From the UHGV virus genome UHGV-0069723: a DNA stretch of 41,341 nucleotides. The stretch is one strand, 5' to 3'. Positions 171-33,044 of this stretch are shown here, piece by piece. Origin of the DNA: a virus. The notes beneath the pieces are model-generated. The model ran no database searches, was not told where the DNA came from, and was given only the letters and a program-made list of their open reading frames with translations. Within the stretch, counting starts at the first letter, position 1. Every line of letters starts with the position of its first letter. Position numbers and translations under genes: made by a program.

Positions 171-1421
171 GTGCTTACCGATACAAAATTAAAAAACCTC
201 AAGCCGCAGGACAAACTGTACAAGGTTTCCGATCGTGACGGGCTGTATGTAGCTGTGCTTACGTCAGGCACGGTCTCGTTTCGCTATGACTACCGTATCA
301 ACGGTCGCCGCGAAACACTGGTAATCGGGCAGTATGGGCGTGACGGTATCAGCCTGGCAGAAGCGCGAGAAGAACTGATTGCTGCAAAGAAGCTGCTTAA
401 AGCAGGCCAGTCACCGGCTGCGGCTAAACGTGACGGTATCAAAAAGATTCGTGGTGCCGAGACGTTTGCGGTACATACCGACAGTTATATGAAACACGTC
501 ATCCTGGCTGACAGTACCCGCGCAATGAAACAGGCGGTGATCGACCGTGACATACTTCCGGTTCTTGGCAATAAAATGATGGCTGAAATTACCACATCGA
601 TGGTTCGTGATTTGTGTGACCGGATTGTCGAACGCGGTGGCCGGGCAACAGCAGTGCAGGCCAGGGAGATCATCAGTAGCGTATACCGTCACGCCAATGA
701 CCGTGGTCATGGTTTGTTTAATCCTGCGGCTGACATTAAACCTTCGTCTATCGCCATATTTAAACCACGAGAGCGAACACTGACACCAGAAGAAATTGGC
801 CTGTTCTTCCGCACGCTGGATGCCATTGGTGCTATGGGCACTATGAAAATGGCTTTAAAACTGGTGCTTATCACTATGGTTCGTAAGGGCGAATTCACCA
901 ATGCAACGTGGGATGAAATAGATTTTAAAAAATGGACATGGACAATTCCTCCAGACCGCATGAAGGGAAGCCGGGCGCACGTTATTTACCTGCCTAAACA
1001 GGCACAGGATATATTGGTCGGGTTGCAGATGTGCGCTGGTGGAAGTGAATATCTGGTTCCTGGTCGTTACAATATCCGGAAGCCATTATCTAATGCCGCG
1101 CTGAACTCTCTGATCGACAGAACGGTGAAAATAATAAATGAAGATGGTGAGCATATTCAGGACTTCACTGTACATGATATGCGCCGTACAGCCAGTACGT
1201 TGTTGCATGAGGCTGGTTATCCTTCAGACTGGATTGAAAAGGCTCTGGCACATGAGCAGAAAGGTGTGCGCGCCGTATATAACAAAGCGGAATACGCCAG
1301 ACAGCGCGCCTACATGTTGCAGCAGTGGGCCGATATGATTGATTCATGGATTGACGGGGAGCATACGGATCTGATTCCGTTCTCCCCGTCGAAGTTTGAG
1401 AAGTGGATGGCGGGGGAATAA
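171..1421 (+). CDS. int: Tyrosine-type site-specific integrase (P4-like, arm-binding N-terminal domain)
   Basis: 416 aa ORF with GTG start; N-terminus MLTDTKLKNLKPQDKLYKVSDRDGLYVAV...FRYDYRINGRRETLVIGQYG typical of P4-family integrases; C-terminal HDMRRT box and conserved Tyr region; sits next to the attL-type repeat. Confidence 0.9.
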   Translation: MLTDTKLKNLKPQDKLYKVSDRDGLYVAVLTSGTVSFRYDYRINGRRETLVIGQYGRDGISLAEAREELIAAKKLLKAGQSPAAAKRDGIKKIRGAETFAVHTDSYMKHVILADSTRAMKQAVIDRDILPVLGNKMMAEITTSMVRDLCDRIVERGGRATAVQAREIISSVYRHANDRGHGLFNPAADIKPSSIAIFKPRERTLTPEEIGLFFRTLDAIGAMGTMKMALKLVLITMVRKGEFTNATWDEIDFKKWTWTIPPDRMKGSRAHVIYLPKQAQDILVGLQMCAGGSEYLVPGRYNIRKPLSNAALNSLIDRTVKIINEDGEHIQDFTVHDMRRTASTLLHEAGYPSDWIEKALAHEQKGVRAVYNKAEYARQRAYMLQQWADMIDSWIDGEHTDLIPFSPSKFEKWMAGE

Positions 1422-1615: not shown

Positions 1616-2266
1616 TCATGCAGCACGCTCCCGCCCCTGGATGTCTGTTGGTGACAGCGGAGCATTGCTGAATGCATTTGTTAATCCGCCAATATCCAAC
1701 GCGTATCCAGGGTGTAGTTGCACTGCCGGGTCTTCGCACTGATTACCCCAAACATCGAAGCCATGAGACGTCTGGCGGGCGAACAGTTCAATGCGAGAAA
1801 CATCGCCTAATAATTGCACAAGTTTTTCACGAACGATATCTGGCTTTCTTGAATGCTCAAGCCGCGGTGCGGTAAATGACTGAACGATCCCTGCATTAAT
1901 GCGCGTAGGTAGTTTTCCCTTTACCGCAAACAGGCAATCTTCACTATTGGCGCGAGTCATGTGTCCCATACCCATAACCAGTTTATCTGGTTGTCGACTA
2001 CCACATTTTATCCACGTGAAGCCCTTCATCGTCATCAGACGGAATCCCCAGGCTTCAACAACTTTTAGTGCTTCGAGTGGTTGTGTTGGCACCCACCACA
2101 TGGCCAACAGACAGTTTTCATCGGCCAAATCCCACACAGGAAGGCGGCAGATATCCAGCACACTCATAACCGGATATTTAAAACCGGCACCGCGATTACC
2201 ATCTGCGGCTTTGTCCCGGTATACCCAGGGTGGATCTGCATAGATTAGTGTGTATTTCTTAGTCAT
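1616..2266 (-). CDS. MT-A70 family N6-adenine DNA methyltransferase
   Basis: Motif YADPPW near the N-terminus (MTKKYTLIYADPPWVY); ATG at 2266 preceded by GGGGTGG RBS; the track ORF extends to a GTG at 2278. C-terminal 30 aa look low-complexity. Confidence 0.8.
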   Translation of the reverse strand: MTKKYTLIYADPPWVYRDKAADGNRGAGFKYPVMSVLDICRLPVWDLADENCLLAMWWVPTQPLEALKVVEAWGFRLMTMKGFTWIKCGSRQPDKLVMGMGHMTRANSEDCLFAVKGKLPTRINAGIVQSFTAPRLEHSRKPDIVREKLVQLLGDVSRIELFARQTSHGFDVWGNQCEDPAVQLHPGYALDIGGLTNAFSNAPLSPTDIQGRERAA

Positions 2267-2558
2267 AAACCACCCCACAACATCCTATGCCGCTATAGTC
2301 GCCACGGCGAAGGCCGTTACCTTTTGTGATACATTGGTCCCTGCGAACCGCGATCCTTGCACGTTCAACATCACCAGAAGCAACATCCATACACTGAAGC
2401 CAAAGGTGAGCGGCAATGCGGAATTGCCCTTTTTTCTCTCTTTCAATCGCGCGTTTTTCGATCTCTATCGCCGCAGGAGTAACGGCGACAATCTTTGACG
2501 GACTGCGCATTGAAACCTTATTCATGTGATATTTTTCAAGTCGGCTTAACTTTCTCAC
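2259..2558 (-). CDS. Hypothetical protein (early-left operon)
   Basis: 99 aa ORF same strand as flanking genes; stop overlaps the methyltransferase start by 8 nt; start codon uncertain (Met at 2558, 2525 or 2510). Confidence 0.5.
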   Translation of the reverse strand: MRKLSRLEKYHMNKVSMRSPSKIVAVTPAAIEIEKRAIEREKKGQFRIAAHLWLQCMDVASGDVERARIAVRRDQCITKGNGLRRGDYSGIGCCGVVYD

Positions 2559-2667
2559 TTAATCCAACCCTCTCTGAAAATTAATGCCAGCAGATAAAGC
2601 CATGCTGAAACAGAGGCCAGGAATAAGTACCATCCTGACCATTTGCTCCAGTGCCTTAGCAGCGCAC

Positions 2668-2916
2668 TCATGCAGCGTTGCTCACGGGACGATATACACG
2701 TTGCTGAACAGGAGGCTTTTTACCCTGGAACTCTGCCGGGCTTGCTGCCTGACGTTCATCAAGCCAACGCTCAACTTCATCACGGTTCCATGCGCAGCGT
2801 TTATCGGTGATATACCAGCGTTTAGGAAATTCCCCTGCGCGCTCCATACGGTCGATAGTGCTCCATGACAGTGGCACCACCGCCAGGAGTTCTTTCTTAC
2901 CTAATGCACCTTTCAT
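2668..2916 (-). CDS. AlpA-family HTH regulator / excisionase-like protein
   Basis: 82 aa; LSWSTIDRMERAGEFPKRWYITDKRCAWNRDEVERWL matches the AlpA/Xis-type HTH pattern; located between int and the recombination genes. Confidence 0.8.
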   Translation of the reverse strand: MKGALGKKELLAVVPLSWSTIDRMERAGEFPKRWYITDKRCAWNRDEVERWLDERQAASPAEFQGKKPPVQQRVYRPVSNAA

Positions 2917-2965
2917 GAATACCTCTCTTGGTTGCAGTGCGGCGCACGTGGCGCCGCGGTGGTGG

Positions 2966-3988
2966 TTACTCGAATTCTGGACGCATATCGTTAAGCGTCA
3001 TCATGAATTTTTGGTGATATTCATCACCGAGCTTTTCAGCCATGGTGTTAATTTCATTTTCAGCGCGCTTGAACATCGTTTTTGCATCTTCAGCAGATGG
3101 ATCCAGGCTATTAAGTATCGCGATGATATATTCTCGAGCTTCTTCTCGTTCTGAATCTGAAATTGGCGACAGGTGTTGACGCTCATCGTCAACTACGGAA
3201 TATTCACCAGTGATAACAGCTGCGTTATCTTGGCTAAGTCCAGCTTCAGCGCGCTCATCCATAACAACAGCCTTCTGCATTTCAATAGAAACAGGAAGAT
3301 ATTTGAACAGTCGGCGAATTACTGTTTTTTTAGCCATCTCATCGAAGTGATCAACCCATGGGCCACTGCTACCGGCTTTGCTCAGTGCACGAACTTTCTC
3401 AACGTCTGCCCGGCTCATAACTTCAAATTGGACTCCGCCATCTTTCAGTCGTGCAACGGCGTAAACGTGCGTTAATTCTCCGCGGTCACCTGTTTCGCAA
3501 GGTAAATGCTCGAGCGTTTCTTCCAGGCCGTATGAGTAGCTGAATTTGTCGTTTGTATGTACGGTACGAGCCGAGATACTCAGGATCTGCCCAGAGCGGC
3601 GGGCAAGGTCAATCATTCCGCGATAGCCGATAATCAGCTGTGCTTCTGTAGATACGGTTTCCCATCTTCCATTTACTTTCTGGCGTTTGTCGAACGGTAT
3701 CAGGTAAGCGTGTCCAAGAGCTCCGCCTGGTTCAAGACCCAATTGGGCACATTGCATAATTGCCCCCAGGAAGCTGGCTTGGTCGCATGATGCAAGTTTT
3801 GGAACCTTTCTGATCTCTGTGGTTGCTATGCGCGCCAGACGGTCTGCTGTCATGTGCTTTGGAAGTGCCAAAGCCATCTGAGCTTTAATTTTTGGGTCTG
3901 CCAGAAGTCCGGCCAGAGTTGTTGGTTTCTCATTATGATGTGCAACTTGGTTACCGGTAGCCGCTGCCTTAAGTGCATTGATAGACAT
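2966..3988 (-). CDS. recT: RecT-family single-strand annealing recombinase
   Basis: 340 aa; RecT-like core (SFLGAIMQCAQLGLEPGG...AYLIPF...); immediately downstream of the YqaJ-type exonuclease gene. Confidence 0.9.
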   Translation of the reverse strand: MSINALKAAATGNQVAHHNEKPTTLAGLLADPKIKAQMALALPKHMTADRLARIATTEIRKVPKLASCDQASFLGAIMQCAQLGLEPGGALGHAYLIPFDKRQKVNGRWETVSTEAQLIIGYRGMIDLARRSGQILSISARTVHTNDKFSYSYGLEETLEHLPCETGDRGELTHVYAVARLKDGGVQFEVMSRADVEKVRALSKAGSSGPWVDHFDEMAKKTVIRRLFKYLPVSIEMQKAVVMDERAEAGLSQDNAAVITGEYSVVDDERQHLSPISDSEREEAREYIIAILNSLDPSAEDAKTMFKRAENEINTMAEKLGDEYHQKFMMTLNDMRPEFE

Positions 3989-3997: not shown

Positions 3998-4897
3998 TTA
4001 CTTCATTCTGAAGACGCGTTGTGTCGTTGTTGTTTTGAATTTTTCGAATAACTCAGGGTGTACTGACTGGAATAGCTTCTGGTCGAATCTGTTGCTGATC
4101 TGAGATTTCCATGTGCAGAGCGGCTTTCCGTCCAGGGTCAGGACTGAGTGCTCTTGCATGTACATCTTCAGCTTCTCTTCTGATATAGCTATTTCTTCTT
4201 CCAGTGATTTTCTGCGTGATTTCATGTCTCGTAGATCGTTGAATAGTGCGAGTGCCTTTCCGTCAGCCTCGATACTTGTCCCGGCATCTTTCTCAAACAT
4301 CAGCGATACATCGCTTACGCTGGTAGCTTCCGGCGGGTTAAGATTTTTCACTCGGTCCCAGAAAGCGATTTCTTTTTCTAAGATCGCCTGGATAGTTTCT
4401 TCATCACGCTCAACCCGATAGATTCGGAAGTCGTCGCCACCGATAAGCACACCGAAAACGCATACCTGTTTGTTTGTAACCATCAACCCGTGCATGGCCT
4501 GGGCCGTGTAATGCACAGGAATTGCATCTGTCTGGATTTCTCCCCATTCTTTGGCCTTGAACGGACTAACTGTTTTGATCTCAATGTTCTCGCCTGACGC
4601 TGCTTCTGCATCGATCTCAGCTGCAATAAAATCGTAATCACGGTGGATATAGCGGTTTCCGCGATGAACGATTTCCATCCCTGTTTCCTCAGAAAGCAGG
4701 TCTATTACGTATGGCTCCATACGCTGGCCACGCGTGAAAACTTTCTGCTTGCTTTGGTCTACTGGTTTGACACGTGGCTGGACCTTATCCAGATAAACCT
4801 CAAGCGGGGTGCGCCATGGGCTAATTCCAAGAATCCCTGCAACATCGCTTCCTCCGATGTATTTTGTTCTATCCATGATTCCAGCGTTCCGCATCAT
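3998..4897 (-). CDS. YqaJ-type (lambda Exo/RecE-like) recombination exonuclease
   Basis: 299 aa; N-terminal RTKYIGGSDVAGILGISPWRTPLEVY typical of the YqaJ viral recombinase nuclease domain; paired with recT. Start could be 4897 or the Met at 4876. Confidence 0.85.
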   Translation of the reverse strand: MMRNAGIMDRTKYIGGSDVAGILGISPWRTPLEVYLDKVQPRVKPVDQSKQKVFTRGQRMEPYVIDLLSEETGMEIVHRGNRYIHRDYDFIAAEIDAEAASGENIEIKTVSPFKAKEWGEIQTDAIPVHYTAQAMHGLMVTNKQVCVFGVLIGGDDFRIYRVERDEETIQAILEKEIAFWDRVKNLNPPEATSVSDVSLMFEKDAGTSIEADGKALALFNDLRDMKSRRKSLEEEIAISEEKLKMYMQEHSVLTLDGKPLCTWKSQISNRFDQKLFQSVHPELFEKFKTTTTQRVFRMK

Positions 4898-5193
4898 GCC
4901 GCGTCCCTCTGCCCATCAAGCTGATCCGCCAGATCCCAGCGCGCTATAATTGCCATTGCCTCGCGCCGGTAGGCATCCATCAGTTCTTCGAACTCAGGGC
5001 TGTCTTTAGCAGCCTCCAGCACTTCCTGACGAACGCCTTTGCCTGTTACAACGTCGAAAGTTGAGGACAGTTGATGAAGTCGGATGCTCTCAATCAGTTC
5101 AACTTGTCGGTCATATAGCTGTTCTGACAGGCGGTAGTCCTTGTCGAATGCCAGCATGATTTTTTGAAGATTTTTCTGCTGATTAACGTTCAT
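4894..5193 (-). CDS. Hypothetical early protein
   Basis: 99 aa from ATG 5193 (MNVNQQ...) with GGGAGGG RBS; stop overlaps the exonuclease start (ATGATG). Confidence 0.55.
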   Translation of the reverse strand: MNVNQQKNLQKIMLAFDKDYRLSEQLYDRQVELIESIRLHQLSSTFDVVTGKGVRQEVLEAAKDSPEFEELMDAYRREAMAIIARWDLADQLDGQRDAA

Positions 5194-11488: not shown

Positions 11489-12084
11489 TGATGCCTGCTG
11501 AACCTAAAACCTATAAACGCAAATCAACGCAATTTAAGCCACTAACAGCAATGCAGGAGGCTTATTGCCAGTCATACATCAAAACGCCTGAAAACCAGAC
11601 TCAGGCAGCGATTAACGCAGGATTCTCCCCAAATACAGCGGCAGTTAAAGCCAGTGTCATGATGCGCGATGAACGCATTCAAAAACGGATTGCCGAGCTG
11701 ATGGAGGAGCGCAACAAACGAATGCGCGTCAGTGCTGATTACGTTCTCATGCGCCTGGTGGAGATCGACCAGATGGACGTGATCGACATCCTCAACGACG
11801 ATGGGAGCCTTAAGCCAATCCGCGAGTGGCCGAAAATCTGGCGCACTACGCTTAGCGGCTTTGATCTGTCATCGACCATCATGAACATGAACGAGGATTC
11901 GATAGAGACAATCCTCAAAAAAATTAAATGGCCTGACAAGGTGAAGAACCTCGAGCTTATCGGTAAGCACGTCGACGTCAACGCGTTCAAAGAGCGCCTG
12001 GATGTTAATGTGAATGTGACAATTGCTGATCGCATAGCGGCAGCCAGGAAGCGACTCAAAGAACGTCAGGATGGTAATCAGTGA
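11488..12084 (+). CDS. Terminase small subunit
   Basis: 198 aa from ATG 11488; LTAMQEAYCQSYIKTPENQTQAAINAGFSPNTAAVKASVMMRDERIQKRI matches the terS (Terminase_2-type) N-terminal pattern; precedes terL with a 4-nt overlap. Confidence 0.85.
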   Translation: MMPAEPKTYKRKSTQFKPLTAMQEAYCQSYIKTPENQTQAAINAGFSPNTAAVKASVMMRDERIQKRIAELMEERNKRMRVSADYVLMRLVEIDQMDVIDILNDDGSLKPIREWPKIWRTTLSGFDLSSTIMNMNEDSIETILKKIKWPDKVKNLELIGKHVDVNAFKERLDVNVNVTIADRIAAARKRLKERQDGNQ

Positions 12085-13556
12085 CAGATGCAGTGTTATC
12101 TCCTGAAGAGCAGTTAATCGAAGATATTGCAGGGTTCACTCACGATCCGCTTGGCTATGCCCTCTATGCGTTCCCGTGGGGGGAAGAGGGGACTGAACTG
12201 GCACATGCCACCGGCCCACGTCAGTGGCAGGCTGATGCGTTCCGAGAGATACGTGATCACCTGCAGAATCCAGAGACGCGCTATCAGCCGCTTATGCTGG
12301 CACGCGCTTCTGGTCACGGTATTGGTAAATCCGCATTCATCTCAATGCTGATCAACTGGGGCATGTCCACTTGCGAGGATTGTAAGGTCGTGGTGACCGC
12401 CAACACCGACAACCAGCTACGAACGAAGACTTGGCCGGAAATTATCAAGTGGTCGAACCTTGCTATCACGAAAGACTGGTTTACCTGTACCGCTACCGCG
12501 ATGTACAGCAATGACCCTGGGCACGACAAGCGGTGGCGAGCTGACGCAATCCCCTGGTCTGAGCACAACACTGAGGCATTCGCCGGATTACACAATGAGC
12601 GCAAACGCATCATCGTGGTATTCGATGAAGCGTCGAACATTGCGGATCTGGTGTGGGAAGTTGCCGAGGGTGCGCTAACGGACGAAGACACTGAGATTAT
12701 CTGGGTGGCGTTCGGAAACCCGACGCGTAATACCGGACGTTTCCGTGAATGTTTCCGCAAGTATAAACACCGCTGGAAAACTGCGCAGATTGACAGTCGG
12801 ACGGTGGAAGGTACCAACAAACAGCAGTTGCAGAAATGGGTTGATGACTACGGGGAAGACAGCGACTTCGTTAAAATCCGTGTGCGTGGCATATTCCCTG
12901 ATGCATCTGAATTGCAGTTTATCCCTACCGGTCTTACTGACGAGGCAATAAAACGGGTGGTAACCGCTGCGCAGGTTGCACATGCTCCGGTGATAATCGG
13001 CGTTGACCCGGCATACTCCGGCGTTGATGACGCTGTGATATACCTGCGGCAGGGGCTACACAGTAAGGTGCTGTGGACTGGAAACAAGACTACCGACGAT
13101 CTGATTATGGCGAAGCGTATCGCTGACTTTGAAGACCAGTATCAGGCTGACGCGGTGTTCATCGACTTTGGTTACGGAACCGGTTTGAAGTCAATCGGTG
13201 ACGGCTGGGGTCGTACATGGCAACTTGTTCCGTTCGGTGGCGCGTCTACTGACCCGCAGATGCTCAACAAGCGTGGGGAGATGTTCAACTCATGCAAGAC
13301 ATGGCTGAGGCTTGGCGGCATGCTGGATGACCATGAAACAGCGGACGACCTGTCGGCGGCAGAGTACAAAGTTCGAGTGGACGGTAAAATCGTTATCGAA
13401 CCGAAGGAAGATATCAAAGAGCGGCTTGGGCGTTCTCCTGGTAAAGGCGATGCGCTACTGCTGACGTTTGCGTTCCCTGTGTCGAAGCGTCTGCGAATTC
13501 CCGGTCAGCAGAACCAGCAAGGCAAGGCCATCACAGATTACGATCCCTATGCTTAA
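12081..13556 (+). CDS. Terminase large subunit
   Basis: 491 aa directly after terS; ATPase-like N-terminal region and nuclease-like C-terminal region with conserved acidic residues. Confidence 0.9.
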   Translation: MTDAVLSPEEQLIEDIAGFTHDPLGYALYAFPWGEEGTELAHATGPRQWQADAFREIRDHLQNPETRYQPLMLARASGHGIGKSAFISMLINWGMSTCEDCKVVVTANTDNQLRTKTWPEIIKWSNLAITKDWFTCTATAMYSNDPGHDKRWRADAIPWSEHNTEAFAGLHNERKRIIVVFDEASNIADLVWEVAEGALTDEDTEIIWVAFGNPTRNTGRFRECFRKYKHRWKTAQIDSRTVEGTNKQQLQKWVDDYGEDSDFVKIRVRGIFPDASELQFIPTGLTDEAIKRVVTAAQVAHAPVIIGVDPAYSGVDDAVIYLRQGLHSKVLWTGNKTTDDLIMAKRIADFEDQYQADAVFIDFGYGTGLKSIGDGWGRTWQLVPFGGASTDPQMLNKRGEMFNSCKTWLRLGGMLDDHETADDLSAAEYKVRVDGKIVIEPKEDIKERLGRSPGKGDALLLTFAFPVSKRLRIPGQQNQQGKAITDYDPYA

Positions 13557-13606: not shown

Positions 13607-13630
13607 AGCCAGCTCATCGGCTGGCTGTTT
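13607..13630. terminator. Hairpin after terL, possibly a bidirectional terminator
   Basis: AGCCAGC-TCATCG-GCTGGCT with T-rich sequence on both strands; sits between convergent genes. Confidence 0.5.
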
Positions 13631-13646: not shown

Positions 13647-14003
13647 TTATTGCTCGCTTAACTTCTGCTTCAGCAAGTAACCTTCGAGCATCCAGATTTT
13701 GTTTACAGCATTCTGCCGGGCAATCTTCCGACCAATTTCTGCATCAAAATTTTCCGGACTTGCACAGGCACTCTCTCCGGTGACGGTGAAGCCATTCTTC
13801 AGTACCAATACGCAGAAAGTCAGGAGGTCTGTAGATTTATGCGCTGTCCATGAATCGCCAACGCCCATATTGGCAGCACGAATGCCGTCATAAGCAGTAA
13901 AGAAATGCTCTTCAAGAATGATGCTTTCGATATATTGAGGCGTAACTCGCGGAGCGGTTTTGCCTTTCTCAACGATTTCTTTTTCGATTTGCTGGTCGTT
14001 CAT
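13647..14003 (-). CDS. Hypothetical protein (possibly Gp49-like), antisense to the late operon
   Basis: 118 aa; AAGGTGAG RBS; lies with the tRNA on the minus strand between terL and the portal gene. Confidence 0.5.
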   Translation of the reverse strand: MNDQQIEKEIVEKGKTAPRVTPQYIESIILEEHFFTAYDGIRAANMGVGDSWTAHKSTDLLTFCVLVLKNGFTVTGESACASPENFDAEIGRKIARQNAVNKIWMLEGYLLKQKLSEQ

Positions 14004-14013
14004 AATCTCACCT

Positions 14014-14038
14014 TAAAAAAATGCCCGGCGAACCGGGC
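14014..14038 (-). terminator. Rho-independent terminator (minus strand)
   Basis: Minus-strand hairpin GCCCGG-TTCG-CCGGGC followed by a T-run; just upstream of the 13647-14003 gene RBS. Confidence 0.5.
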
Positions 14039-14115
14039 GAACTGGAAGCAATGAGTTATGCCTTCCGTGGCTGTACGGGTTTACAGCATGAAGTCATCGC
14101 AATGGCGTCCTGCTG

Positions 14116-14158
14116 TAAAAAGGGCGGTGATAGTCCTTCAAGGGAAACCATCACCGCC
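14116..14158 (-). terminator. Rho-independent terminator of the tRNA gene
   Basis: 9-bp stem GGCGGTGAT/ATCACCGCC followed by TTTTT on the minus strand, about 45 nt 3' of the tRNA. Confidence 0.6.
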
Positions 14159-14201
14159 AAGCCCCTGGAACTTCTGGCATCACGGTCCTTAGGCGTGATT
14201 C

Positions 14202-14278
14202 TGGTGTGGCATGCAGGATTCGAACCTGCGACCAACCGCTTAGAAGGCGGTTGCTCTGTCCAACTGAGCTAATGCCAC
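14202..14278 (-). tRNA. tRNA-Arg (anticodon UCU, reads AGA), phage-encoded, CCA encoded
   Basis: Hand-folded cloverleaf: acceptor GTGGCAT/ATGCCAC, D-arm GCTC-AGTTGGACA-GAGC, anticodon stem ACCGC/GCGGT with loop CTTCTAA, T-arm GCAGG-TTCGAAT-CCTGC, discriminator A plus CCA; 77 nt. Confidence 0.9.
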
Positions 14279-14600
14279 AACGCTGAGAGCACTTAGCCTG
14301 TTAAGGCGCCACACTTTGTCGCGGCTCCATAAATGCTCTCATCGTTGTACCCTCGTCTCTTCCGAGGCGTCACACCGAATCGCCGGGATGGTGAATCCCC
14401 GTGCGCGGAATAAAACCGCTCGACTTGCACATTCCGGCTACCTGGTTCGTTTGCCCGAGCAAGGTAGGGTGCCCCTTAAACGTATCCAGACCGCTATCGT
14501 CGCATGTGCCATACGCCGTACTGCTCAAAATAAAAGCTCACTCCACCTGTTCAATTTAACGACAAGCCAGTCAGGTTAGTAACCGGAATGAACTTTTTTG

Positions 14601-14615
14601 TTACCCGAAGGGTAA
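14601..14615. promoter_or_regulatory. Perfect TTACC-N5-GGTAA site upstream of the head gene block
   Basis: TTACCCGAAGGGTAA, about 90 bp upstream of the first late-strand ORF. Confidence 0.5.
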
Positions 14616-14705
14616 TAATTCGCGCGTTAAATGTCAACTGCCTACGATAAATAAATCATATGTGGTTAAATTGGTAATAATTTAATTGCGTACGGAGTCA
14701 TTGAT

Positions 14706-14912
14706 ATGTGCATGGGTAGCTCACCATCAGTGCCTGCAACACCAGAAGTTCAGGCAGCACCACAGGAGCAGGATTCCGCCGTTGTTGATGCCCGAGACGA
14801 AGAAACTCGTCGCCGTCGCGCTGCTGCTGGTCGTAGTTCTACGCTGCTTACCGGTTCTCAGGGCGACACATCAACCGCTAATACCAGCGGTAAAACGCTG
14901 CTTGGTCAGTAA
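14706..14912 (+). CDS. Small hypothetical protein upstream of portal
   Basis: 68 aa ORF ending 15 nt before the portal start; GGAG 9 nt upstream; overlapping alternative frame (14686-14925) cannot be excluded. Confidence 0.35.
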   Translation: MCMGSSPSVPATPEVQAAPQEQDSAVVDARDEETRRRRAAAGRSSTLLTGSQGDTSTANTSGKTLLGQ

Positions 14913-14926: not shown

Positions 14927-16606
14927 ATGGCGGAAACAACTAAAGAGCGATTGAACAAACAGTTCGCACAACTTGAAAGCGAGCGTCAGTCGTTCGAGCC
15001 GCACTGGCGCGAGTTGAGTGATTACATCAACCCGCGTGGTTCCCGCTTTCTGACTTCTGAGGTCAACCGTAACGATCGACGCAATACACGCATTATTGAT
15101 TCGACCGGGACTATGGCGGCGCGCACTCTCGCCAGCGGCATGATGTCAGGCATCACAAGCCCCGCGCGTCCGTGGTTTCGCCTGGCTACGCCAGATCCTG
15201 AAATGATGGATTATGGCCCTGTTAAGTTGTGGCTTGAGGCGGTGCAGAACCGCATGAACGATATGTTCAATAAGTCGAATCTCTACCAGTCTCTTCCGCA
15301 GTTATACGGAAGCCTCGGCACATACAGCACTGGTGCAATGGCGGTGCTGGAGGATGACGAGGACATCATTCGCACAATGCCATTCCCGATAGGCAGTTAC
15401 TACCTGGCTAACTCACCTCGTGGCAGTGTGGACACCTGTTTTCGCAAGTTCTCTATGACTGTTCGTCAGCTTGTTCAGGAGTTCGGGCTAAATAACGTCA
15501 GCGAATCCGTAAAAAGCATGTGGGAAAGCGGCACCTACGAGAAGTGGATTGACGTGATGCATTCGGTTTACCCGAACATTGACCGCGATACATCGAAGCT
15601 GGATAGCAAGAACAAGCCATTCAAATCGGTTTATTACGAGGTTGGTGGCGATAACGACAAGTTGTTGCGTGAGTCCGGATTTGATGAGTTTCCAATTATG
15701 GCTCCGCGCTGGGAAGTTAATGGCGAAGATGTTTATGGATCATCATGCCCGGGTATGCTGGCGCTTGGACCTGTTAAGGCATTGCAGCTTCTCCAGAAGC
15801 GCAAGTCGCAGTTGATTGATAAAGCCACCAATCCGCCGATGGTTGCTCCGACTTCCCTCAAGAATCAGCGCGCCTCCCTTCTTCCTGGCGACATCACGTA
15901 TATCGATCAGATTACTGGTCAGGATGGTTTCAGGCCTGCTTATCTGGTTAACCCCAGTACAGCAGATCTGGTAGCAGACATTCAGGACACTCGTCAAATC
16001 ATTAACAGCGCCTACTTTGTCGATCTGTTCATGATGTTGCAGAACATCAATACCCGCTCGATGCCTGTTGAAGCGGTGATCGAAATGAAAGAAGAAAAAC
16101 TTCTGATGTTGGGGCCGGTTCTGGAGCGTCTGAACGACGAATGTCTTAACCCTCTCATTGACCGCGCTTTCTCGATGATGGTGCGTAAAAACATGCTGCC
16201 GCCACCGCCTGACGCGATGGAAGGTATGCCCCTGAAGGTCGAATACATTTCCGTCATGGCTCAGGCGCAGAAGTCTATCGGCCTGTCCAGTCTGGCGTCC
16301 ACGGTTAACTTCATTGGTCAACTTGCGCAAGCGAAACCAGAAGCTCTCGACAAACTCAACGTTGATCAGGCGATCGATGCATTCGCTGATATGTCCGGAG
16401 TGTCTCCAACCGTCATTGTTCCGCAGGAACAGGTTGAGCAGGCTCGCCAGCAACGGGCACAGCAGCAACAGCAGCAACAAATGATGGCGATGGGGATGGC
16501 GGCGGCACAGGGTGCCAAGACGCTAAGCGAAGCTAAAACTTCGGATCCGAGTGTTTTGTCAGCTATGGCGAATGCAGTTAGTGGTCAGGGTGGGCAATCA
16601 CAATGA
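14927..16606 (+). CDS. Portal (head-to-tail connector) protein
   Basis: 559 aa, first large gene of the structural block, followed by scaffold and major capsid genes; Gln-rich C-terminal tail. Confidence 0.85.
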   Translation: MAETTKERLNKQFAQLESERQSFEPHWRELSDYINPRGSRFLTSEVNRNDRRNTRIIDSTGTMAARTLASGMMSGITSPARPWFRLATPDPEMMDYGPVKLWLEAVQNRMNDMFNKSNLYQSLPQLYGSLGTYSTGAMAVLEDDEDIIRTMPFPIGSYYLANSPRGSVDTCFRKFSMTVRQLVQEFGLNNVSESVKSMWESGTYEKWIDVMHSVYPNIDRDTSKLDSKNKPFKSVYYEVGGDNDKLLRESGFDEFPIMAPRWEVNGEDVYGSSCPGMLALGPVKALQLLQKRKSQLIDKATNPPMVAPTSLKNQRASLLPGDITYIDQITGQDGFRPAYLVNPSTADLVADIQDTRQIINSAYFVDLFMMLQNINTRSMPVEAVIEMKEEKLLMLGPVLERLNDECLNPLIDRAFSMMVRKNMLPPPPDAMEGMPLKVEYISVMAQAQKSIGLSSLASTVNFIGQLAQAKPEALDKLNVDQAIDAFADMSGVSPTVIVPQEQVEQARQQRAQQQQQQQMMAMGMAAAQGAKTLSEAKTSDPSVLSAMANAVSGQGGQSQ

Positions 16607-23347: not shown

Positions 23348-23886
23348 TGTGTAACCCAGCCATCGCTTTGGTTGCCGTCACAGTGGCATCCACAGCCGCG
23401 TCAATGTACAGCCAGAGCAAGCAGGCAAAATACCAGTCAGCCATAGCTGATCGGAATGCTGAAATTGCTGAAGCTCAGGCACAGGATTCAATCAATCGTG
23501 GGAATATTGAAGCGGATCAGCGTCGTCGTGAAATGCGTCAACGCTCAGGCACTGCGGCGGCCACTATGGGGGCTACCGGTGCGGAATTAAGTAGCGGAAC
23601 AGCTCTTGACGTTTTTGCGGATAATGCTCAGTTCGGCACTCTTGATGCGTTAACGACAGTGAATAATGCTCAGCGTGAGGCATATGGGTATCAGGTTCAG
23701 GGAATGAATGCTCAGGCACAGGGGGCTGCTGCTCAGTCGGCTGCTAAATCATCGATGACCAGCACTTTGTTAACGGCACCACTAAAAGCATACGGTGCAT
23801 ACCAGATGGGCGGCGGAACGTGGAGCCCGTTCTCTCAGAAAGCTGCGCCGATTTCTGCTGCTGTTGGCACTCCAACCGGTCGATAA
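23347..23886 (+). CDS. Small internal virion protein candidate
   Basis: 179 aa; Ala/Gln-rich with hydrophobic N-terminus. Confidence 0.5.
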   Translation: MCNPAIALVAVTVASTAASMYSQSKQAKYQSAIADRNAEIAEAQAQDSINRGNIEADQRRREMRQRSGTAAATMGATGAELSSGTALDVFADNAQFGTLDALTTVNNAQREAYGYQVQGMNAQAQGAAAQSAAKSSMTSTLLTAPLKAYGAYQMGGGTWSPFSQKAAPISAAVGTPTGR

Positions 23887-23898
23887 GGGGATAATAAG

Positions 23899-26412
23899 AT
23901 GCCAGTTGTACCAACAACATCGGGCCGTCAGGTTCAAAGCAGAGGGATTTCGACGCAGGGATTCTCATCGTTTCAGACACCAAATGTCGGTGATGTACTT
24001 GGCGATGTTGCAGAGCAATATGCAGGTATTATTGCGCAGGCAAAACAGCGTGCGAATGTTGCTATGGCTCAGGATGCTTCTCTTAGCTTAAGCCAGATAA
24101 GCAGCGATCTGCTGAATAACCCTGAAACAGGTTTGCTTAACCTGAAAGGGAAAAATGCTATTGGAAAAGGTCAGGAGTATACGCAGCAGTTTGATGCTCA
24201 GGTCGAACAACTGGCTATGTCGCTGCTGGATGAACAGGCTCGTAATGCTTTCATGCAGCAGGCGCAGCAGCAGCGCATTCAGTTCACTACGCAGGCCGGG
24301 CGGCACGAGATAGGGCAAATAAATGCCTACGAAGAAGGCCAGTTTCAGGCTACGCTGCTGAACAATGGTAAAAATGCCGCAGCATTGTATGGCGACAACG
24401 CCGCATACGTATTGGCTAATAAGCAAACTTTCCAGCAAATTGAGGATTACGGCATTGCACATGGCTGGAGTGACGAGCAAATCCAGGCCAAGAAAATCGA
24501 GTTTAAAGAAGCAACAGCAAAAGCAACTGCTCAAAATGCTATTGGAGCAAACTATCTTCAGGTAAGACAGCAAAACGGCGAGTTAAGCGATACTGCTGCT
24601 GGTTCTCGCCGTGCTGTAGCAGATAGTGGCTCTTCCGATCGTACCCGCGGTATACGCAACAATAACCCCGGCAATCTTGAATACAGCAAAACTAATCCGT
24701 GGGTTGGGCAGACTGGTGATGATGGTCGCTTTGCCAAATTCGAAACCCCTGAACACGGTATTCGTGCATTAGGGCGGAACCTGATGTCGTATCAGCAGCA
24801 GGGTATTGATACCGTCAGCGAGATAATTAATCGCTGGGCACCGCCTACTGATAAAAATGACACTATGTCGTATATCAAAGCAGTGTGCGAACAACTTGGC
24901 GTTTCTGCTGATGAGCCTCTCGATGCATCAAATCCTGATACCCTGAAGGCGCTTTGTGCAGCCATTATCCATCATGAAAACGGTAGCCAGCCATACAGTG
25001 ATCAGCAGTTAACTGCAGGTGTTAGTGCTGCGCTGGGGCTTTCTCAGCTACCGACAAAAAATAAACGTTATACCGGTGTAGCCTGGTTCGATGCTTTAAG
25101 TGAATCAGATCAGGCCAGCGTGTTGCGACAGACTGATGCACTAGCCAGACAACAGCAGGCTGAATATAAAACGATGCTCGACAGCCGGGTTCGCGATGCG
25201 ACGGCTGCGTATATGCGTGGCATTGAATTTCCTAACCCACCTGGTGAGGATGATTTTATTGCAGCTTATGGAGTCAGAGAAGGAAACCTGCGATATACCG
25301 AGTTTAAGAATACGCAGATCGCCGGACAGTATATAGGCTCTTTCCGCAACATGCCGACAAGCAGCATTACAGCATATGTTGAGCAATTACGCCCGGATAC
25401 TGGTGATACAGGGGAGGGGTATGCGGCACGCGCAACTCTTTATGACAACGTTGTTTCGGCTGCAAATCAGGTGATAAAGCAGCGGCAGTCGGATCCTGTG
25501 CAGTTCTCTCTTGCCTCCGGACAGGCAAAGCCTATCGACATGAGCAATAAGGATAACTTTGGACAGAGCGTTGCCTTGCGTGCCGCTCAGGTCAGTGACC
25601 TTGCTAAGTCATATGGCACTCCACTGACGTTCTTTTCCAAAGACGAGGCCAATCAGATCGGTGTTTTCTTTCGTGATGCTCCAGTTTCCCAACAGGCAGC
25701 ATATCTCGATACCATCAGGCAGAGCACTGGTGGTGGGCAGGTGTATATGTCAGCACTACAGCAGATCAGTGCCAACGCTCCATCTGCTGCCGTTGCCGGG
25801 ATACTGATGGATAAGCCTGGTGGTATTTTGGCAGAAAAAAACTGGTTTAATCCGGATGTTTCCGTGTCTCCTGAAACCGCTGCGCAGACAATTCTTGCTG
25901 GCGCGGCGGCTCGTAAAGGTACTGATGATGCGAAAGGTATTCCGATGCCTAAAGATGCTGATCTTCGCCTTGAGTTTTCTGACATGGTGAAGGATGCATT
26001 TGCTGGTGACGCTCAGGGCGCATCAATGGCATACGAGATCGCAAAGGATTATTACGCTGGTGTGATGGCGAAAAAAGGCGTGGTATCAGGCGAAATTGAC
26101 AATGATGTCTGGAAACAGGCTGTTAACGTAGCTACAGGTGGCGTGCATGACTATAACGGAATGGGGAATGTCCTTTTGCCGTGGGGAATGTCTGCAGAGC
26201 AATTCGATAAGCAGGTTAATCAGGCTTGGAATGAACAAGTTGTCGGCTCAGGGATAAAAACACCGCCTGGTCAGTATGGTTTGCAAAGTTACGGCGATAG
26301 TCAGTACCTGGTGAAACTTGGTACTGGTTATCTGTTGAAAGATGATGGTTCTCCCGTTGTTCTTAATCTGACACAGAAGCGTCAGAGATTCTCCGGAGAT
26401 ATTCCGCAATGA
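23899..26412 (+). CDS. Large internal virion / ejection protein (possible cell-wall-degrading domain)
   Basis: 837 aa; segment GIRNNNPGNLEYSKTNPWVGQTGDDGRFAKFETPEHGIRALGRNL resembles motifs I associate with virion-associated muralytic domains (tentative). Confidence 0.6.
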   Translation: MPVVPTTSGRQVQSRGISTQGFSSFQTPNVGDVLGDVAEQYAGIIAQAKQRANVAMAQDASLSLSQISSDLLNNPETGLLNLKGKNAIGKGQEYTQQFDAQVEQLAMSLLDEQARNAFMQQAQQQRIQFTTQAGRHEIGQINAYEEGQFQATLLNNGKNAAALYGDNAAYVLANKQTFQQIEDYGIAHGWSDEQIQAKKIEFKEATAKATAQNAIGANYLQVRQQNGELSDTAAGSRRAVADSGSSDRTRGIRNNNPGNLEYSKTNPWVGQTGDDGRFAKFETPEHGIRALGRNLMSYQQQGIDTVSEIINRWAPPTDKNDTMSYIKAVCEQLGVSADEPLDASNPDTLKALCAAIIHHENGSQPYSDQQLTAGVSAALGLSQLPTKNKRYTGVAWFDALSESDQASVLRQTDALARQQQAEYKTMLDSRVRDATAAYMRGIEFPNPPGEDDFIAAYGVREGNLRYTEFKNTQIAGQYIGSFRNMPTSSITAYVEQLRPDTGDTGEGYAARATLYDNVVSAANQVIKQRQSDPVQFSLASGQAKPIDMSNKDNFGQSVALRAAQVSDLAKSYGTPLTFFSKDEANQIGVFFRDAPVSQQAAYLDTIRQSTGGGQVYMSALQQISANAPSAAVAGILMDKPGGILAEKNWFNPDVSVSPETAAQTILAGAAARKGTDDAKGIPMPKDADLRLEFSDMVKDAFAGDAQGASMAYEIAKDYYAGVMAKKGVVSGEIDNDVWKQAVNVATGGVHDYNGMGNVLLPWGMSAEQFDKQVNQAWNEQVVGSGIKTPPGQYGLQSYGDSQYLVKLGTGYLLKDDGSPVVLNLTQKRQRFSGDIPQ

Positions 26413-28211
26413 GTTACTTTGGCCTTAATCCAGTAAACCAGAATCAGCAGCTTGACGAAGCAGCATCAAATCCAGCTGGCTTTAACAGCGATGTTGGTTT
26501 TTTCGACAATGCTGTAGGAGCGGCATTGTCTGGTTTGTACTCCGGGCTGGTGGCAAAGCCAGATCAGTTGCTATGGGCAGGGATGGATAAAATCGTATCC
26601 CCGATTGCTCAGTTTGTTAACGAAAACACCTCGATCAATGACACTTCAGTTTCATACATTGCTGAGCAGAGAAAACTAGCAGAGCAGCAGGTTAAGCGGC
26701 TGACGCCTGATGCCGCGACAACCGGAACCGCCGGGCAGGTCCTTTATGGGTTGTTCGATATGGGCGGGCAGGCTGTTGTCGGTACAACGCTCGGTGGTCC
26801 GGTCGGAGGTGCTGCGGCGGTAACTTCTCTACAGGGTTTTTCTGAGTTTGAACGGCTTACAGCACAGGGTGTTGATTTCAGGACGGCGCAGGAAGCGGGA
26901 TTAGTGCAGGGTATTACTGCTGGTGCCGGAACACTGATCCCTATGAGCCTCGGGTTACGTGCTGGTGGTGCGCTGGCGGAAGGTGTGGCGGCTCAGCTTG
27001 CGCGGACGGGTGAAAGTTCAGTGCGACGCGCCGCAGCAACAGCAGTACGTGCAACGCCAGATATTGCCTATGCCGCAGGTACAAATATTGCGTTCGGTAT
27101 GGCACAGCGTGGGCTTACTGCAAAAACGCTTCGTGATGGTGGCTATAGCGAAATGGCTAACCAGTATGATGTGTTGGATCGACAGGCAATTGCTATTGAT
27201 GCTGTTCTTGGGGTGGCGTTTGGTGGTGTCGGCAGATTTATTAACTTTCGCGGCGAGTCTACAAGCGCACCAAATTTTTCACTAGTTGATATCGATGCTG
27301 CACTGGCGGCGAATGCCGCTCATCATGCTGAAATTGATATTGCTCCCGGCGTGCCGATCAACGTGCTTTCGCGTAATTCGCACATTCAGGCTCTGCGAAA
27401 AGCCATGTCTGATGTTAGCCAGGGGAGACCTGTAGACGTTGCCAGCATTGTTGAGTCTGCATCTTTCAGTGAAATTCCTGGACGCAAGAGTCTGCTGTCT
27501 CAGGCAGTTAATGAGGCTCTGTCATCTGTAGATGATGGAGTAACGGCGCGCGCTATAGAAAATCGGTTGCTTGAAGAACAGGCCGCGCAGCTTTTGCCGC
27601 GTGGCGATAGACAGGTTTACCAGTCTGAAATCGCTAATAGCCAACGAATTATTGAAAATCTCACTGAACAGCGCGCACAAATTCTTGCAGAAGATCCAGC
27701 CGGTAGCGGTAAGGCTTTATCTCGTGCTCGATCAGATAAACAGGCCAGACTTCGCGATATTGACCAACGAATCCGGCAGGCACAAGAACGCCTGGAATTT
27801 TCTCGTAACGCGTTGGCACCGCATGAGCCTGGCGGTCAGTTTTTTGAAGCTCGAGCAGAACTGGCTCGGAGACAGCAGGCAGAAAGTGAACTTAATGCTC
27901 AGGCTGTTTCATTCTATAAAACAGCAGAGGTCAGGACGCCAGACGAAGTAGCTCCTTTTGAGCCTGATAAAATATTGCAACAGGCAGAACAAAAAATGAT
28001 GTCAGATCAGGCAGGAGATATTGATTTGCGCATAGCTGAAGACTCGCTGCTTGAATCACCTGACATGATAATCACCGTGCTGGATGATGATGGTAATCCA
28101 CAATCGCGCAGTGCGCGTGAAGCACTGGATGAAGCGAACAGGGAAAGTGAGCAGGCAATACAGGATTCCAGCCTGTTTGATGTCGCTGTGGCGTGTTTCT
28201 TGAGAGGTTAA
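26409..28211 (+). CDS. Large internal virion / ejection protein
   Basis: 600 aa; Gly/Ala-rich N-terminal region, coiled-coil C-terminal region. Confidence 0.6.
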   Translation: MSYFGLNPVNQNQQLDEAASNPAGFNSDVGFFDNAVGAALSGLYSGLVAKPDQLLWAGMDKIVSPIAQFVNENTSINDTSVSYIAEQRKLAEQQVKRLTPDAATTGTAGQVLYGLFDMGGQAVVGTTLGGPVGGAAAVTSLQGFSEFERLTAQGVDFRTAQEAGLVQGITAGAGTLIPMSLGLRAGGALAEGVAAQLARTGESSVRRAAATAVRATPDIAYAAGTNIAFGMAQRGLTAKTLRDGGYSEMANQYDVLDRQAIAIDAVLGVAFGGVGRFINFRGESTSAPNFSLVDIDAALAANAAHHAEIDIAPGVPINVLSRNSHIQALRKAMSDVSQGRPVDVASIVESASFSEIPGRKSLLSQAVNEALSSVDDGVTARAIENRLLEEQAAQLLPRGDRQVYQSEIANSQRIIENLTEQRAQILAEDPAGSGKALSRARSDKQARLRDIDQRIRQAQERLEFSRNALAPHEPGGQFFEARAELARRQQAESELNAQAVSFYKTAEVRTPDEVAPFEPDKILQQAEQKMMSDQAGDIDLRIAEDSLLESPDMIITVLDDDGNPQSRSAREALDEANRESEQAIQDSSLFDVAVACFLRG

Positions 28212-28216
28212 ATTAA

Positions 28217-30691: not shown

Positions 30692-30699
30692 AAGGAGAT

Positions 30700-30825
30700 A
30701 TGATGGTTCAAATAACTTTTATTGTACTAATATGTGCAGCGTTTTTATGCTATTCATACATTTTGATAAAAATGGGTTTCAATTGGAATCTCTGTTGCGT
30801 GCAGCGGCATGGTTCGGCTTTGTAG
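30700..30825 (+). CDS. Small hydrophobic peptide (moron candidate)
   Basis: Hand-called 41 aa ORF (MMVQITFIVLICAAFLCYSYILIKMGFNWNLCC...) with AAAGGAG RBS; the alternative track frame 30675-30863 is also hydrophobic, so the frame is uncertain. Confidence 0.3.
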   Translation: MMVQITFIVLICAAFLCYSYILIKMGFNWNLCCVQRHGSAL

Positions 30826-30910
30826 TATTCGGAATTGTATTGTTCGGAAGAATAATAAAATAACTAGTTAATTTGTGGATTGGTGCTGTTTTTCCATGAT
30901 AGGGGTAATT

Positions 30911-31291
30911 ATGAGAAAAGTATTTTTGATTTTTGGATTTATGCTTCTCGTTGGATGCCAGTCAGCTGCACAGTTTGAAAGAAATATGCTTACGTGGCGC
31001 GGGCAGAGTATAGACGCAATGGTTCAGCAGTGGGGGTATCCTCAGGGAGAGCTTACATCTCCAGATGGAAACAGAGTGTATGTTTACTCAAGCTCTGGTA
31101 GTTATAACGTACCACAAACCACAACGTATAATACTACGTCTAATCTAATTGGTAATACTATATATTCAAACACATACGCAACAACTGATGGCGGTTATAC
31201 ACTCCATTTCAGTTGCTCTGTTTACGTTGAGTTTGGTGCTGATAAGATTATTAAAAATGTTACATGGCGCGGTAATAATTGCGTTGCGTGA
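30911..31291 (+). CDS. Lipoprotein (moron), possible BamE/SmpA-OmlA-like N-terminal region
   Basis: 126 aa from ATG 30911; signal peptide with lipobox LLVGC; Thr/Asn/Tyr-rich C-terminal half; visibly AT-rich gene; stop overlaps the GTGACATGTCAC palindrome. Confidence 0.6.
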   Translation: MRKVFLIFGFMLLVGCQSAAQFERNMLTWRGQSIDAMVQQWGYPQGELTSPDGNRVYVYSSSGSYNVPQTTTYNTTSNLIGNTIYSNTYATTDGGYTLHFSCSVYVEFGADKIIKNVTWRGNNCVA

Positions 31292-33003: not shown

Positions 33004-33029
33004 ATCTCCTCCTCATGTAAACACATGGT

Positions 33030-33044
33030 TTACCTTTAAGGTAA
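33030..33044. promoter_or_regulatory. Perfect TTACC-N5-GGTAA site overlapping the cassette promoter -10/+1
   Basis: TTACCTTTAAGGTAA on the plus strand; on the minus strand it abuts the TACTAT -10 candidate (33044-33049). Confidence 0.5.

Follow-up and report, generated by a model that had tools for sequence, protein, structure and literature searches.

A conserved structured leader RNA with an optional tRNA-Arg(UCU) module in a leftward, probably repressor-controlled unit of a phiV10/epsilon15-like prophage

Analysis of the virus genome UHGV-0069723 (41,341 nt; hereafter the window, whose own coordinates are used throughout) revealed that the minus-strand tRNA-Arg(UCU) lying between the terminase large-subunit gene (terL) and the portal gene is preceded by a structured RNA of ~240 nt (14279..14521), which is fused to the tRNA and contains five helices supported by covariation (P1, P2, P4, P5, and P6). 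This leader is a conserved, strand-specific, covarying RNA structure, a conclusion that we regard as very nearly certain. It belongs to a leftward unit of ~1.0 kb, extending from roughly 14637 down to 13607, in which a promoter with its operator is followed by the ~240-nt leader, the tRNA-Arg(UCU), a short hairpin (P8), a terminator (T1), a terminator-like hairpin (T2), a gene of the Acb4 family, and a final hairpin (T3; Table 1). An earlier note on this DNA, made from the letters alone, had described a minus-strand island between terL and portal with the limits 13647-14278; the flanking genes are as it stated and the features inside these limits are present, but the limits are too narrow, as the unit reaches upstream to ~14637. 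The best explanation for the whole, to which we assign a probability of about 0.4, would be a leftward early unit with a leader that allows transcriptional read-through, a tRNA excised from the transcript, and a predicted gene against the cyclic oligonucleotide-based antiphage signaling system (CBASS). Those parts of this explanation that were directly observed are hardly in doubt.

Architecture and covariation of the leader RNA

The leader core of the window was matched by our covariance model, R1, with a score of 139 bits (E 5e-39), and pattern scans together with this model recovered 132 distinct leader copies. Among 34 diverse cores, 96.6% of the cells were paired and 10 pairs, located in P1, P2, P4, and P5, had changed on both sides. 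None of 500 shuffles reached the observed values, and sliding the partners by 1-3 columns left only 27-42% of the cells paired. For the 79 distinct model-aligned sequences, the paired fraction was 94.9%, and two U-G pairs were near-invariant (77 of 79 sequences), which identifies the strand of the tRNA as the one that folds. The stem of P6 displayed many fully compensated variants across the 132 copies, with a tip of ~40-250 nt. The single-stranded regions of the core contain the invariant blocks GGUAGCCGGAAUGUGCAAG, AGCGGUC, and GGUGUGAC, from which a 5-bp pairing to the loop of P1 (GCACA/UGUGC) and a 3-bp helix could arise; these invariant pairings lie beyond the reach of covariation proof, since the pattern with which the sequences were collected contained one such block. 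A further candidate pairing, between the P2 loop (CUUG) and an invariant CAAG, was rejected after inspection by eye, as it was not consistently supported.

A small protein encoded in the leader was also considered and rejected, the 13-codon open reading frame (ORF; MRAFMEPRQSVAP) being located in the hypervariable P6 tip and not conserved. ORFs on the opposite strand, namely the database entries PhiV10p04 (2672..2923) and mEp460_036/037 (2245..2798) and the window ORF 14021..14272(+), overlap the tRNA or covarying helices and are therefore probably spurious. A search for an antisense target elsewhere in the prophage returned only chance-level 11-13-mers.

With Rfam 15, the tRNA was the only family matched at E<=10 in 14279..14700, six other leader contexts gave no match at E<=0.1, and no GOLLD, ROOL, C4, riboswitch, or ribozyme model matched the leader. 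GOLLD, ROOL, the stable RNAs of the T4 tRNA cluster, and the RNase-P-processed C4 (P1) and CI (P4) RNAs are structured phage RNAs tied to tRNAs or processing sites, with functions that are unknown or regulatory; the leader differs from GOLLD, ROOL, C4, and their like in that the Rfam models of those families fail to match it. We found no published description of the leader in the literature searched, although one may exist; the RNA is apparently undescribed.

Distribution and genomic contexts of the leader

The 241 nt of 14279..14519 are ~82% identical to unannotated DNA in lambdoid phages, the matches being cdtI, mEp460, Ayreon, 2H10, twelve Stx2c phages, and Stx2a_1447/WGPS2. The lambdoid copies are located between the cI repressor gene and the first leftward early gene, in the orientation of that operon. 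Just downstream of an S24/helix-turn-helix cI-type repressor gene and on its strand, that is, at the nutL/putL position, we found 62 of 131 copies, with a distance from cI of ~110 nt in the examples printed. In the lambdoid copies, the gap between cI and the leader holds operator-like repeats and a promoter, no N-like ORF was found between cI and the first leftward gene, and this first gene encodes an unknown 126-aa protein and is followed by DUF2303/YfdQ. A further 39 of the 131 copies reside in Uetakeviruses. In P1, P7, and their relatives, the core occurs alone in an unannotated stretch of 286 nt between trnI and ban (the gap 71009..71294 of P1, AF234172.1; 134.8 bits). These P1-type copies are devoid of P6, the 3' domain, and T1, and the core stands directly before ban inside the operon. 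The tRNA of P1 lies directly 5' of the core, and that of the window directly 3' of it.

As far as searched, all credible copies derive from phages or prophages of Enterobacteriaceae, with Escherichia, Salmonella, Klebsiella, Enterobacter, Citrobacter, and Kosakonia as host genera and Phytobacter, Kluyvera, Pseudescherichia, Superficieibacter, and Erwinia dacicola as further hosts. Pattern matches outside the enterobacteria were mostly due to chance. A full-scoring core (157.7 bits) was observed at 1156..1311 of JAIIAN010000430.1, a 1753-nt contig of a metagenome-assembled genome labelled 'Bacillota bacterium', and this contig is most likely a mis-binned fragment of an enterobacterial phage. 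With R1, mEp460 displayed a single leader copy and HK022 none. No second copy was found in the window or in mEp460, a weak match at 3742..3875 of the window (16.6 bits) having been rejected for want of any conserved block. One viral contig carries two tandem leader cores (3998..4960, minus strand), of which the second is degenerate and the first has its P6 interrupted by ~400 nt apparently bearing an opposite-strand ORF; this locus seems to be a hotspot of recombination and insertion.

The tRNA junction, the 3' domain, and the terminators

The tRNA-Arg(UCU) accompanies only 25 of the 132 leader copies and is lacking from the other 107. In all tRNA-bearing copies, it begins at the same conserved junction, ...GCGUU/GUGG, where the slash marks the boundary. 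In the tRNA-less copies, a variable domain comes directly after the junction; its closing stem, GUGG(U)...(A)CCAC, is equal to the first four base pairs of the acceptor stem of this tRNA, and the domain is succeeded by an AUCACG...CGUGRU hairpin, with the same stem as P8, and a terminator. T-arm-like hairpins such as GGUUCGAUUCC recur in both the variable P6 tip and the 3' domain. The tRNA is not a stand-alone moron but a module that may or may not be present on the 3' side of this conserved structured RNA. The unit as a whole has features of a moron, namely a promoter and a terminator of its own, an orientation opposite to that of its surroundings, and cargo that varies among relatives, but differs from the classic morons in that it is probably repressed in the lysogen.

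T1 is an intrinsic terminator specific to the family, whose hairpin, of the form (C)UUGGCGGU...ACCGCC(C)UUUUUACA, was found at the end of 83 of 120 copies, in lambdoid as well as Uetakevirus contexts. A YCCUU(G) motif is common to the loops of T1 and P2; co-variation of the two loops within individual RNAs is weak, with a mean longest common substring of 5.6 for true, 5.0 for mismatched, and 4.2 for shuffled pairs. In epsilon15, a deletion has joined a 13-nt P2-loop motif, UUCCCUUGAUGCU, to the identical T1-loop motif. All that lay between the two motifs went with it, namely the remainder of the core, P6, the tRNA, and the T1 5' arm, which accounts for the absence of the tRNA from this phage. 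The RNase III site given in the epsilon15 record (2720..2819) falls within a part of the leader region that is rich in hairpins, upstream of the P1 helix that is left (locus 2600..2760; window 14123..14500).

Four minus-strand terminator-like hairpins were found by a consensus scan between 13400 and 15000, against 1.5 expected, and T1 and T2 correspond to the terminator 3' of the tRNA and the second one before the ORF that had been reported previously. T2 lies ~20 nt before the start codon of the Acb4-family gene, directly ahead of its ribosome-binding site, and is kept in epsilon15 upstream of the Gp49 homologue of that phage. Since no sigma-70-like promoter was found between T1 and this gene in a consensus scan, its expression would need read-through. 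T3 closes the leftward unit and may act for terL too; at the equivalent position, phiV10 annotates a rho-independent terminator on the strand of terL. The ~80 nt between T1 and T2 (14040..14122, minus strand) are conserved with epsilon15 and contain an inverted repeat whose pairing takes in the T1 U-tract (UUUACAGCA...UGCUGUAAA). This structure may be a further regulatory element in the leader of the Acb4-family gene, and Rfam returned only meaningless weak matches in 14040..14122 (RyhB, 18 bits).

The candidate promoter and its repressor operator

The layout of the candidate sigma-70 promoter is kept in epsilon15 (TTGACA-17-TACCTT). It scores 9/12 overall and 3/6 in the -10 hexamer, and was unreported by the consensus scan because that scan requires 4/6 in each hexamer. 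An operator palindrome, TTACC-N5-GGTAA, covers the -10 hexamer and the likely start site. This palindrome occurs in 11 exact copies in the window, against ~0.1 expected. Two of the exact copies listed (5368 and 5430) lie left of the repressor gene and one (6142) right of it, where it is joined by near copies at 6159 and 6190. Also listed are exact copies at 8473, 8535, 11456, 14601, 33030, 34080, and 34460 and near copies at 114, 6527, 11474, and 37689, so placed that further palindromes stand before terS, before the tail-fibre gene, before the antirepressor region, and elsewhere. The GenBank record of epsilon15 marks the same motif at equivalent places as repressor sites. The operator of the promoter is of the same form as the OL/OR sites that flank the repressor gene of the prophage. 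The scattered C1 operators of P1 resemble these dispersed palindromes, which here are found in a podovirus.

Since the promoter carries a repressor operator, the most likely regime predicted by the sequence is one in which the unit would be repressed in the lysogen and expressed once the prophage is induced or a cell is infected. The divergent gp3-portal operon could likewise be controlled through this operator, and the interval between the tRNA and gp3 measures 427 nt.

The Acb4-family gene and the putative anti-defence slot

The co-oriented ORF downstream of T2, which had been noticed before and is indeed of 118 aa (13647..14003, minus strand), matched PF13876 with 118.6 bits against a cut-off of 27 (E 1.7e-34). 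This family is the Acb4 family, whose members are tetrameric sponges that sequester the cyclic-nucleotide signals of CBASS (bioRxiv 10.1101/2024.12.30.630793; also 10.1101/2025.07.12.664507). The sole sequence match of the ORF in the PDB was the Acb4 structure 9E4W (E 0.006, residues 61-103). Compared with Acb4 of SPO1, the protein belongs to the same Pfam family, whereas pairwise similarity is low (E 0.006 over 43 residues). PADLOC and PHROGs returned nothing informative for it. The gene is predicted to be an Acb4-family anti-defence gene whose product would act as a cyclic-nucleotide sponge against CBASS; the sponges of this family are tetramers to which 3'3'-cGAMP or related CBASS signals bind.

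The cargo slot that holds this gene is occupied by Gp49/Acb4 in the E. coli phages and epsilon15, by a Tad2-like protein (PF11195, anti-Thoeris) in the equivalent slot of the related Klebsiella phage ST512-KPC3phi13.3, and by DUF551 or unknown proteins in other relatives. A Tad2-like gene directly follows the leader RNA in another phage group as well. The presence of Acb4 and Tad2-like genes in this slot therefore points to an early anti-defence cassette.

The tRNA-Arg(UCU) and codon usage

ARAGORN returned exactly one tRNA over the window, a tRNA-Arg with anticodon TCT, and Rfam RF00005 matched it with a normal cloverleaf at 74.6 bits (E 1e-14), the gathering score being 29. The two programs agree on the canonical 77-nt minus-strand tRNA-Arg(UCU) proposed in the earlier note, which had named rejection by tRNA finders as the outcome that would count against it; both accepted the structure. 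The arginine identity elements of E. coli tRNA-Arg are A20, C35, U/G36, and A/G73. The alignment of the tRNA reads A20 (D-loop ...GGAC...), C35, U36, A73, and an encoded CCA, so that, as read from this alignment, the tRNA has the E. coli arginine identity set with a 3' CCA. Approximately 9% of complete E. coli genomes hold a copy at least 95% identical to it. Its nearest host tRNA is tRNA-Lys (81.7%), the acceptor and anticodon stems differ from those of host tRNAs, and its anticodon loop, CUUCUAA, is presumably the same as that of host argU.

Codon usage was counted over a greedy set of 52 window ORFs (12,246 codons, a few of the ORFs probably being spurious) and over 52 E. coli core genes (14,493 codons). 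Per 1000 codons, AGA and AGG reached 8.66 and 4.98 in the window ORFs and 0.97 and 0.90 in the core genes, AGA being ~9 times commoner in the prophage; usage no higher than that of the host, the second outcome that had been set to count against the tRNA claim, was clearly not observed. With the same ORF caller, AGA frequencies per 1000 codons were 9.30 in HK022 and 6.42 in mEp460, neither of which has a tRNA-Arg(UCU), 5.57 in SPN1S, which has one like the window, and 4.17 in epsilon15, from which it has been deleted. AGA richness is thus a general trait of these temperate phages that does not track the tRNA, and the codon argument is permissive only, because phages without the tRNA are AGA-rich as well. 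The proposal that the tRNA supports AGA-rich late genes held in part: AGA is enriched, and the tail-fibre gene (34579..37335) has 20 AGA and 10 AGG codons, but terL, portal, the capsid gene, and the 118-aa ORF contain no AGA at all, and the enrichment is non-specific. Codon supplementation by the tRNA is plausible but non-discriminating.

Rare-codon tRNAs of other phages, such as the tRNA-Arg(UCU) of T4 and ileZ-argN-argO of Stx phages, are likewise cargo in AGA-rich genomes, and a tRNA-Arg is already annotated in the phiV10-like typing phages, SPN9TCW, and SPC32H. The tRNA of the window differs from other phage tRNAs in being fused to a structured RNA at a fixed junction, optional, and under an immunity operator. 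The tRNA finding itself is correct but ordinary, having already been annotated in RefSeq and GenBank.

Proposed mechanism and alternative explanations

We propose that, upon derepression, host RNA polymerase would start near 14602 and transcribe the leader. The tRNA-processing enzymes would then excise the tRNA, with RNase P cutting at GUU/GUGG, and the excised tRNA would add AGA-decoding capacity. The leader would act in cis, such that a fraction of the polymerases pass T1 and T2 and express the Acb4-family gene, and in the lambdoid phages it would provide the same read-through for the whole early-left operon. The leader would then be a functional analogue, not a homologue, of the HK022 put RNA. 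Cis-acting read-through is favoured because of the position of the leader in lambdoid phages, the terminators that stand before the cargo, and the joint loss of the core and T1 in epsilon15; taken by itself, this mechanism is a tentative reading of the sequence, with the odds leaning somewhat against it.

Lambdoid phages whose left operon is of this type have been noted to lack N, and a put-like RNA mechanism has been suggested for them (PMC12315714). Similar to HK022 put, the leader comes first among the structured elements of a transcript that is early and under the repressor, with terminators downstream and no N there. The put RNAs are processive antiterminators that act in cis and render RNA polymerase resistant to terminators by way of the beta' zinc-binding domain. 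The put RNA of HK022, however, measures ~70 nt and has 2 stem-loops, whereas the leader comprises ~165-400 nt and at least 6 helices and, unlike put, includes a conserved terminator as well as a module that is a tRNA or resembles one. Homology to HK022 put was rejected, since R1 gave no significant match in HK022 and putL, read directly, shows no resemblance.

Several points weigh against the proposed mechanism. The leader has no detectable similarity to put in sequence or structure, and is present in one copy per genome, whereas HK022 has putL and putR. T1, whose loop has a motif in common with that of P2, is conserved within the family too, which would be expected no less of a discrete stable RNA or of an attenuator than of a terminator destined to be read through. 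A processive antiterminator in a Uetakevirus would risk antisense transcription into the terminase past T3. T2 may be leaky, because epsilon15 keeps T2 and the Gp49 homologue without the core, and T1 is missing from the P1 copies. Phages that lack the tRNA are AGA-rich too, and the start site, the RNase P cleavage, and the read-through are all deduced from sequence.

The alternative that survives best is that the leader and its tRNA or tRNA-like domain form a discrete, stable, trans-acting noncoding RNA, with T1 as its 3' end and an RNase P cut at GUU/GUGG. Such an RNA, possibly a tRNA mimic, could be an early decoy for host factors that bind or cleave tRNAs or could otherwise sequester host proteins, the downstream genes being expressed by leakage. 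We regard it, like the attenuator discussed below, as a serious contender, though an unlikely one. The conservation of T1 and its shared loop motif fit such an RNA, as do the acceptor-like GUGG...CCAC stem that closes the 3' domain and the hypervariability of the P6 tip and the 3' domain, which together with the recurrent T-arm-like GGUUCGAUUCC is reminiscent of an arms race. Its neighbours are anti-defence genes (Acb4 and Tad2-like), and GOLLD, ROOL, the T4 stable RNAs, and the C4/CI RNAs provide precedents. On the other hand, P1 and P7 have the core only, inside an operon before ban and without P6, 3' domain, or T1; the early-left operon of the lambdoid phages lies entirely beyond T1, so that a terminator working efficiently at this point would abolish lytic growth; and the prophage offers no long antisense target.

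The reading nearest to the earlier note, a plain tRNA moron with its own promoter and terminator, an unrelated ORF, and a functionless upstream leader, is improbable in our judgement. The tRNA is canonical, AGA and AGG are strongly enriched in the prophage, tRNAs for rare arginine codons are well known in coliphages, and RefSeq annotates nothing but the tRNA and the ORF. However, the upstream 240 nt are conserved with compensatory changes in 132 copies, 107 of them without a tRNA-Arg, the leader is found in unrelated phage types, the tRNA always starts at the same junction, and AGA richness is equally high in tRNA-less phages; this view is disfavoured by the covariation results in particular.

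There is a similarly small chance that the leader is a sensing attenuator, riboswitch-like or protein-binding, in which a host signal gates stop or read-through at T1. The large, highly conserved core with its invariant blocks GGUAGCCGGAAUGUGCAAG, AGCGGUC, and GGUGUGAC and the conservation of the T1 stem base (GGCGGU/ACCGCC) and loop motif along with the core are consistent with this, whereas no alternative pairing with the 5' arm of T1 was found by eye to be conserved across all subtypes, the P1-type copies lack T1, and no riboswitch family of Rfam was matched.

A spare tRNA that replaces a host tRNA-Arg(UCU) cut by an anticodon nuclease is still less probable: a predicted co-transcription with the gene for an anti-CBASS sponge, driven by an early promoter under repressor control, acceptor and anticodon stems unlike those of the host (nearest host tRNA-Lys, 81.7%), an AGA richness that does not track the tRNA, and phage tRNAs that rescue infection from tRNA-cleaving defences (T5 with PARIS, retron systems) would fit it, but no E. 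coli defence aimed specifically at tRNA-Arg(UCU) is known to us, the anticodon loop (CUUCUAA) is presumably that of host argU, and the tRNA is present in only 25 of the 132 copies.

The leader occurs in classic and medically relevant phages, including P1, P7, the Stx2-converting phages, cdtI, phiV10, and SPN1S, and in lambdoid genomes it occupies the position of lambda nutL and N. For early-left expression in the N-less lambdoid phages, it provides a concrete candidate defined by sequence. Taken to its full extent, the read-through proposal would make the leader (165-400 nt) a new class of cis-acting phage RNA directed at the host transcription machinery, which would be the long-suspected substitute for N in N-less lambdoid phages, among them Stx2a- and Stx2c-converting ones, stand ahead of ban in P1, and serve an early anti-defence cassette in Uetakeviruses, with the tRNA or tRNA-like module as a processing site; this broad generalization is doubtful. 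For the Uetakeviruses, what had appeared as an antisense island would be recast as an early repressor-controlled counter-defence cassette composed of a tRNA and an Acb4 or Tad2 sponge, with a bearing on phage host range and on engineering for phage therapy.

Genomic setting of the unit

The 1146 bases around the tRNA locus are 100% identical to a guaA-adjacent prophage in E. coli NZ_OZ040490.1, where RefSeq already labels 'tRNA-Arg' and 'Gp49 family protein' and nothing else of the island. In the genus Uetakevirus, phage phiV10 and the O157 typing phages related to it match the tRNA region with 97% identity, and the window prophage is phiV10/epsilon15-like. The attachment-site core ATTGAGTGGGAATGATT, a duplicated 3' end of guaA whose sequence has been published for a sister phage (PMC9782041), was found at 39473..39489. 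The tRNA is therefore internal cargo and not the integration site, in agreement with the earlier claim.

Table 1. Features of the leftward unit and its flanking genes in the window
Feature	Position	Strand	Description	Basis
Candidate sigma-70 promoter	14609..14637	-	-35 TTGACA (14637..14632), 17-nt spacer, -10 TACCCT (14614..14609)	Read from sequence
Operator palindrome	14601..14615		TTACC-N5-GGTAA over -10 and likely start site	Motif count
Leader core	14349..14521	-	P1, P2, P4, P5, invariant 3-bp helix, and candidate loop-to-strand pairing	Covariance model R1
P6	14277..14348	-	Long hairpin CAACGAUGAGAGCAUU...AGUGCUCUCAGCGUUG with hypervariable tip; 3' strand enters first tRNA bases	Inverted repeat
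tRNA-Arg, anticodon UCU	14202..14278	-	77 nt, CCA encoded	ARAGORN, Rfam RF00005, RefSeq
P8	14179..14199	-	Hairpin AUCACG-CCUAAGGAC-CGUGAU directly 3' of tRNA	Read from sequence
T1	14113..14158	-	Terminator CUUGGCGGU...ACCGCC-CUUUUUACA; hairpin 14158..14123, 14-bp stem and CUUUUU	Terminator scan
T2	14013..14038	-	Terminator-like hairpin GCCCGGUUCGCCGGGC and AUUUUUUU; 14038..14023 in scan, 6 G-C pairs	Terminator scan
Acb4-family gene	13647..14003	-	118 aa, 'N4 Gp49 / Sf6 gp66'	Pfam PF13876
T3	13607..13626		Hairpin between convergent terL and Acb4-family gene	Minus-strand terminator scan
terS		+	Flanking gene	PF03592
terL	12081..13556	+	491-aa ORF	Named from equivalent phiV10/epsilon15 genes
gp3-like ORF	14706..14912	+	68 aa, between terL and portal
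Portal	14927..16606	+		PF12236

A Pfam search of the 491-aa ORF at 12081..13556(+) gave no match. The window and NZ_OZ040490.1 are not collinear throughout: the region of the internal virion/ejection proteins, 23352..31282, has no megablast match in this RefSeq prophage, the best-matching one, and on that comparison the window is a mosaic relative of it; 31931..33515 is only 91% identical. At 33858..34043 on the minus strand, the Hfq-binding RNA isrK (77.9 bits) adjoins a C4 antisense RNA (77.7 bits). This pair forms an antirepressor control module like that of P1 immI, and is also present in the leader-bearing lambdoid phages mEp460, Stx2c, and 1720a-02.

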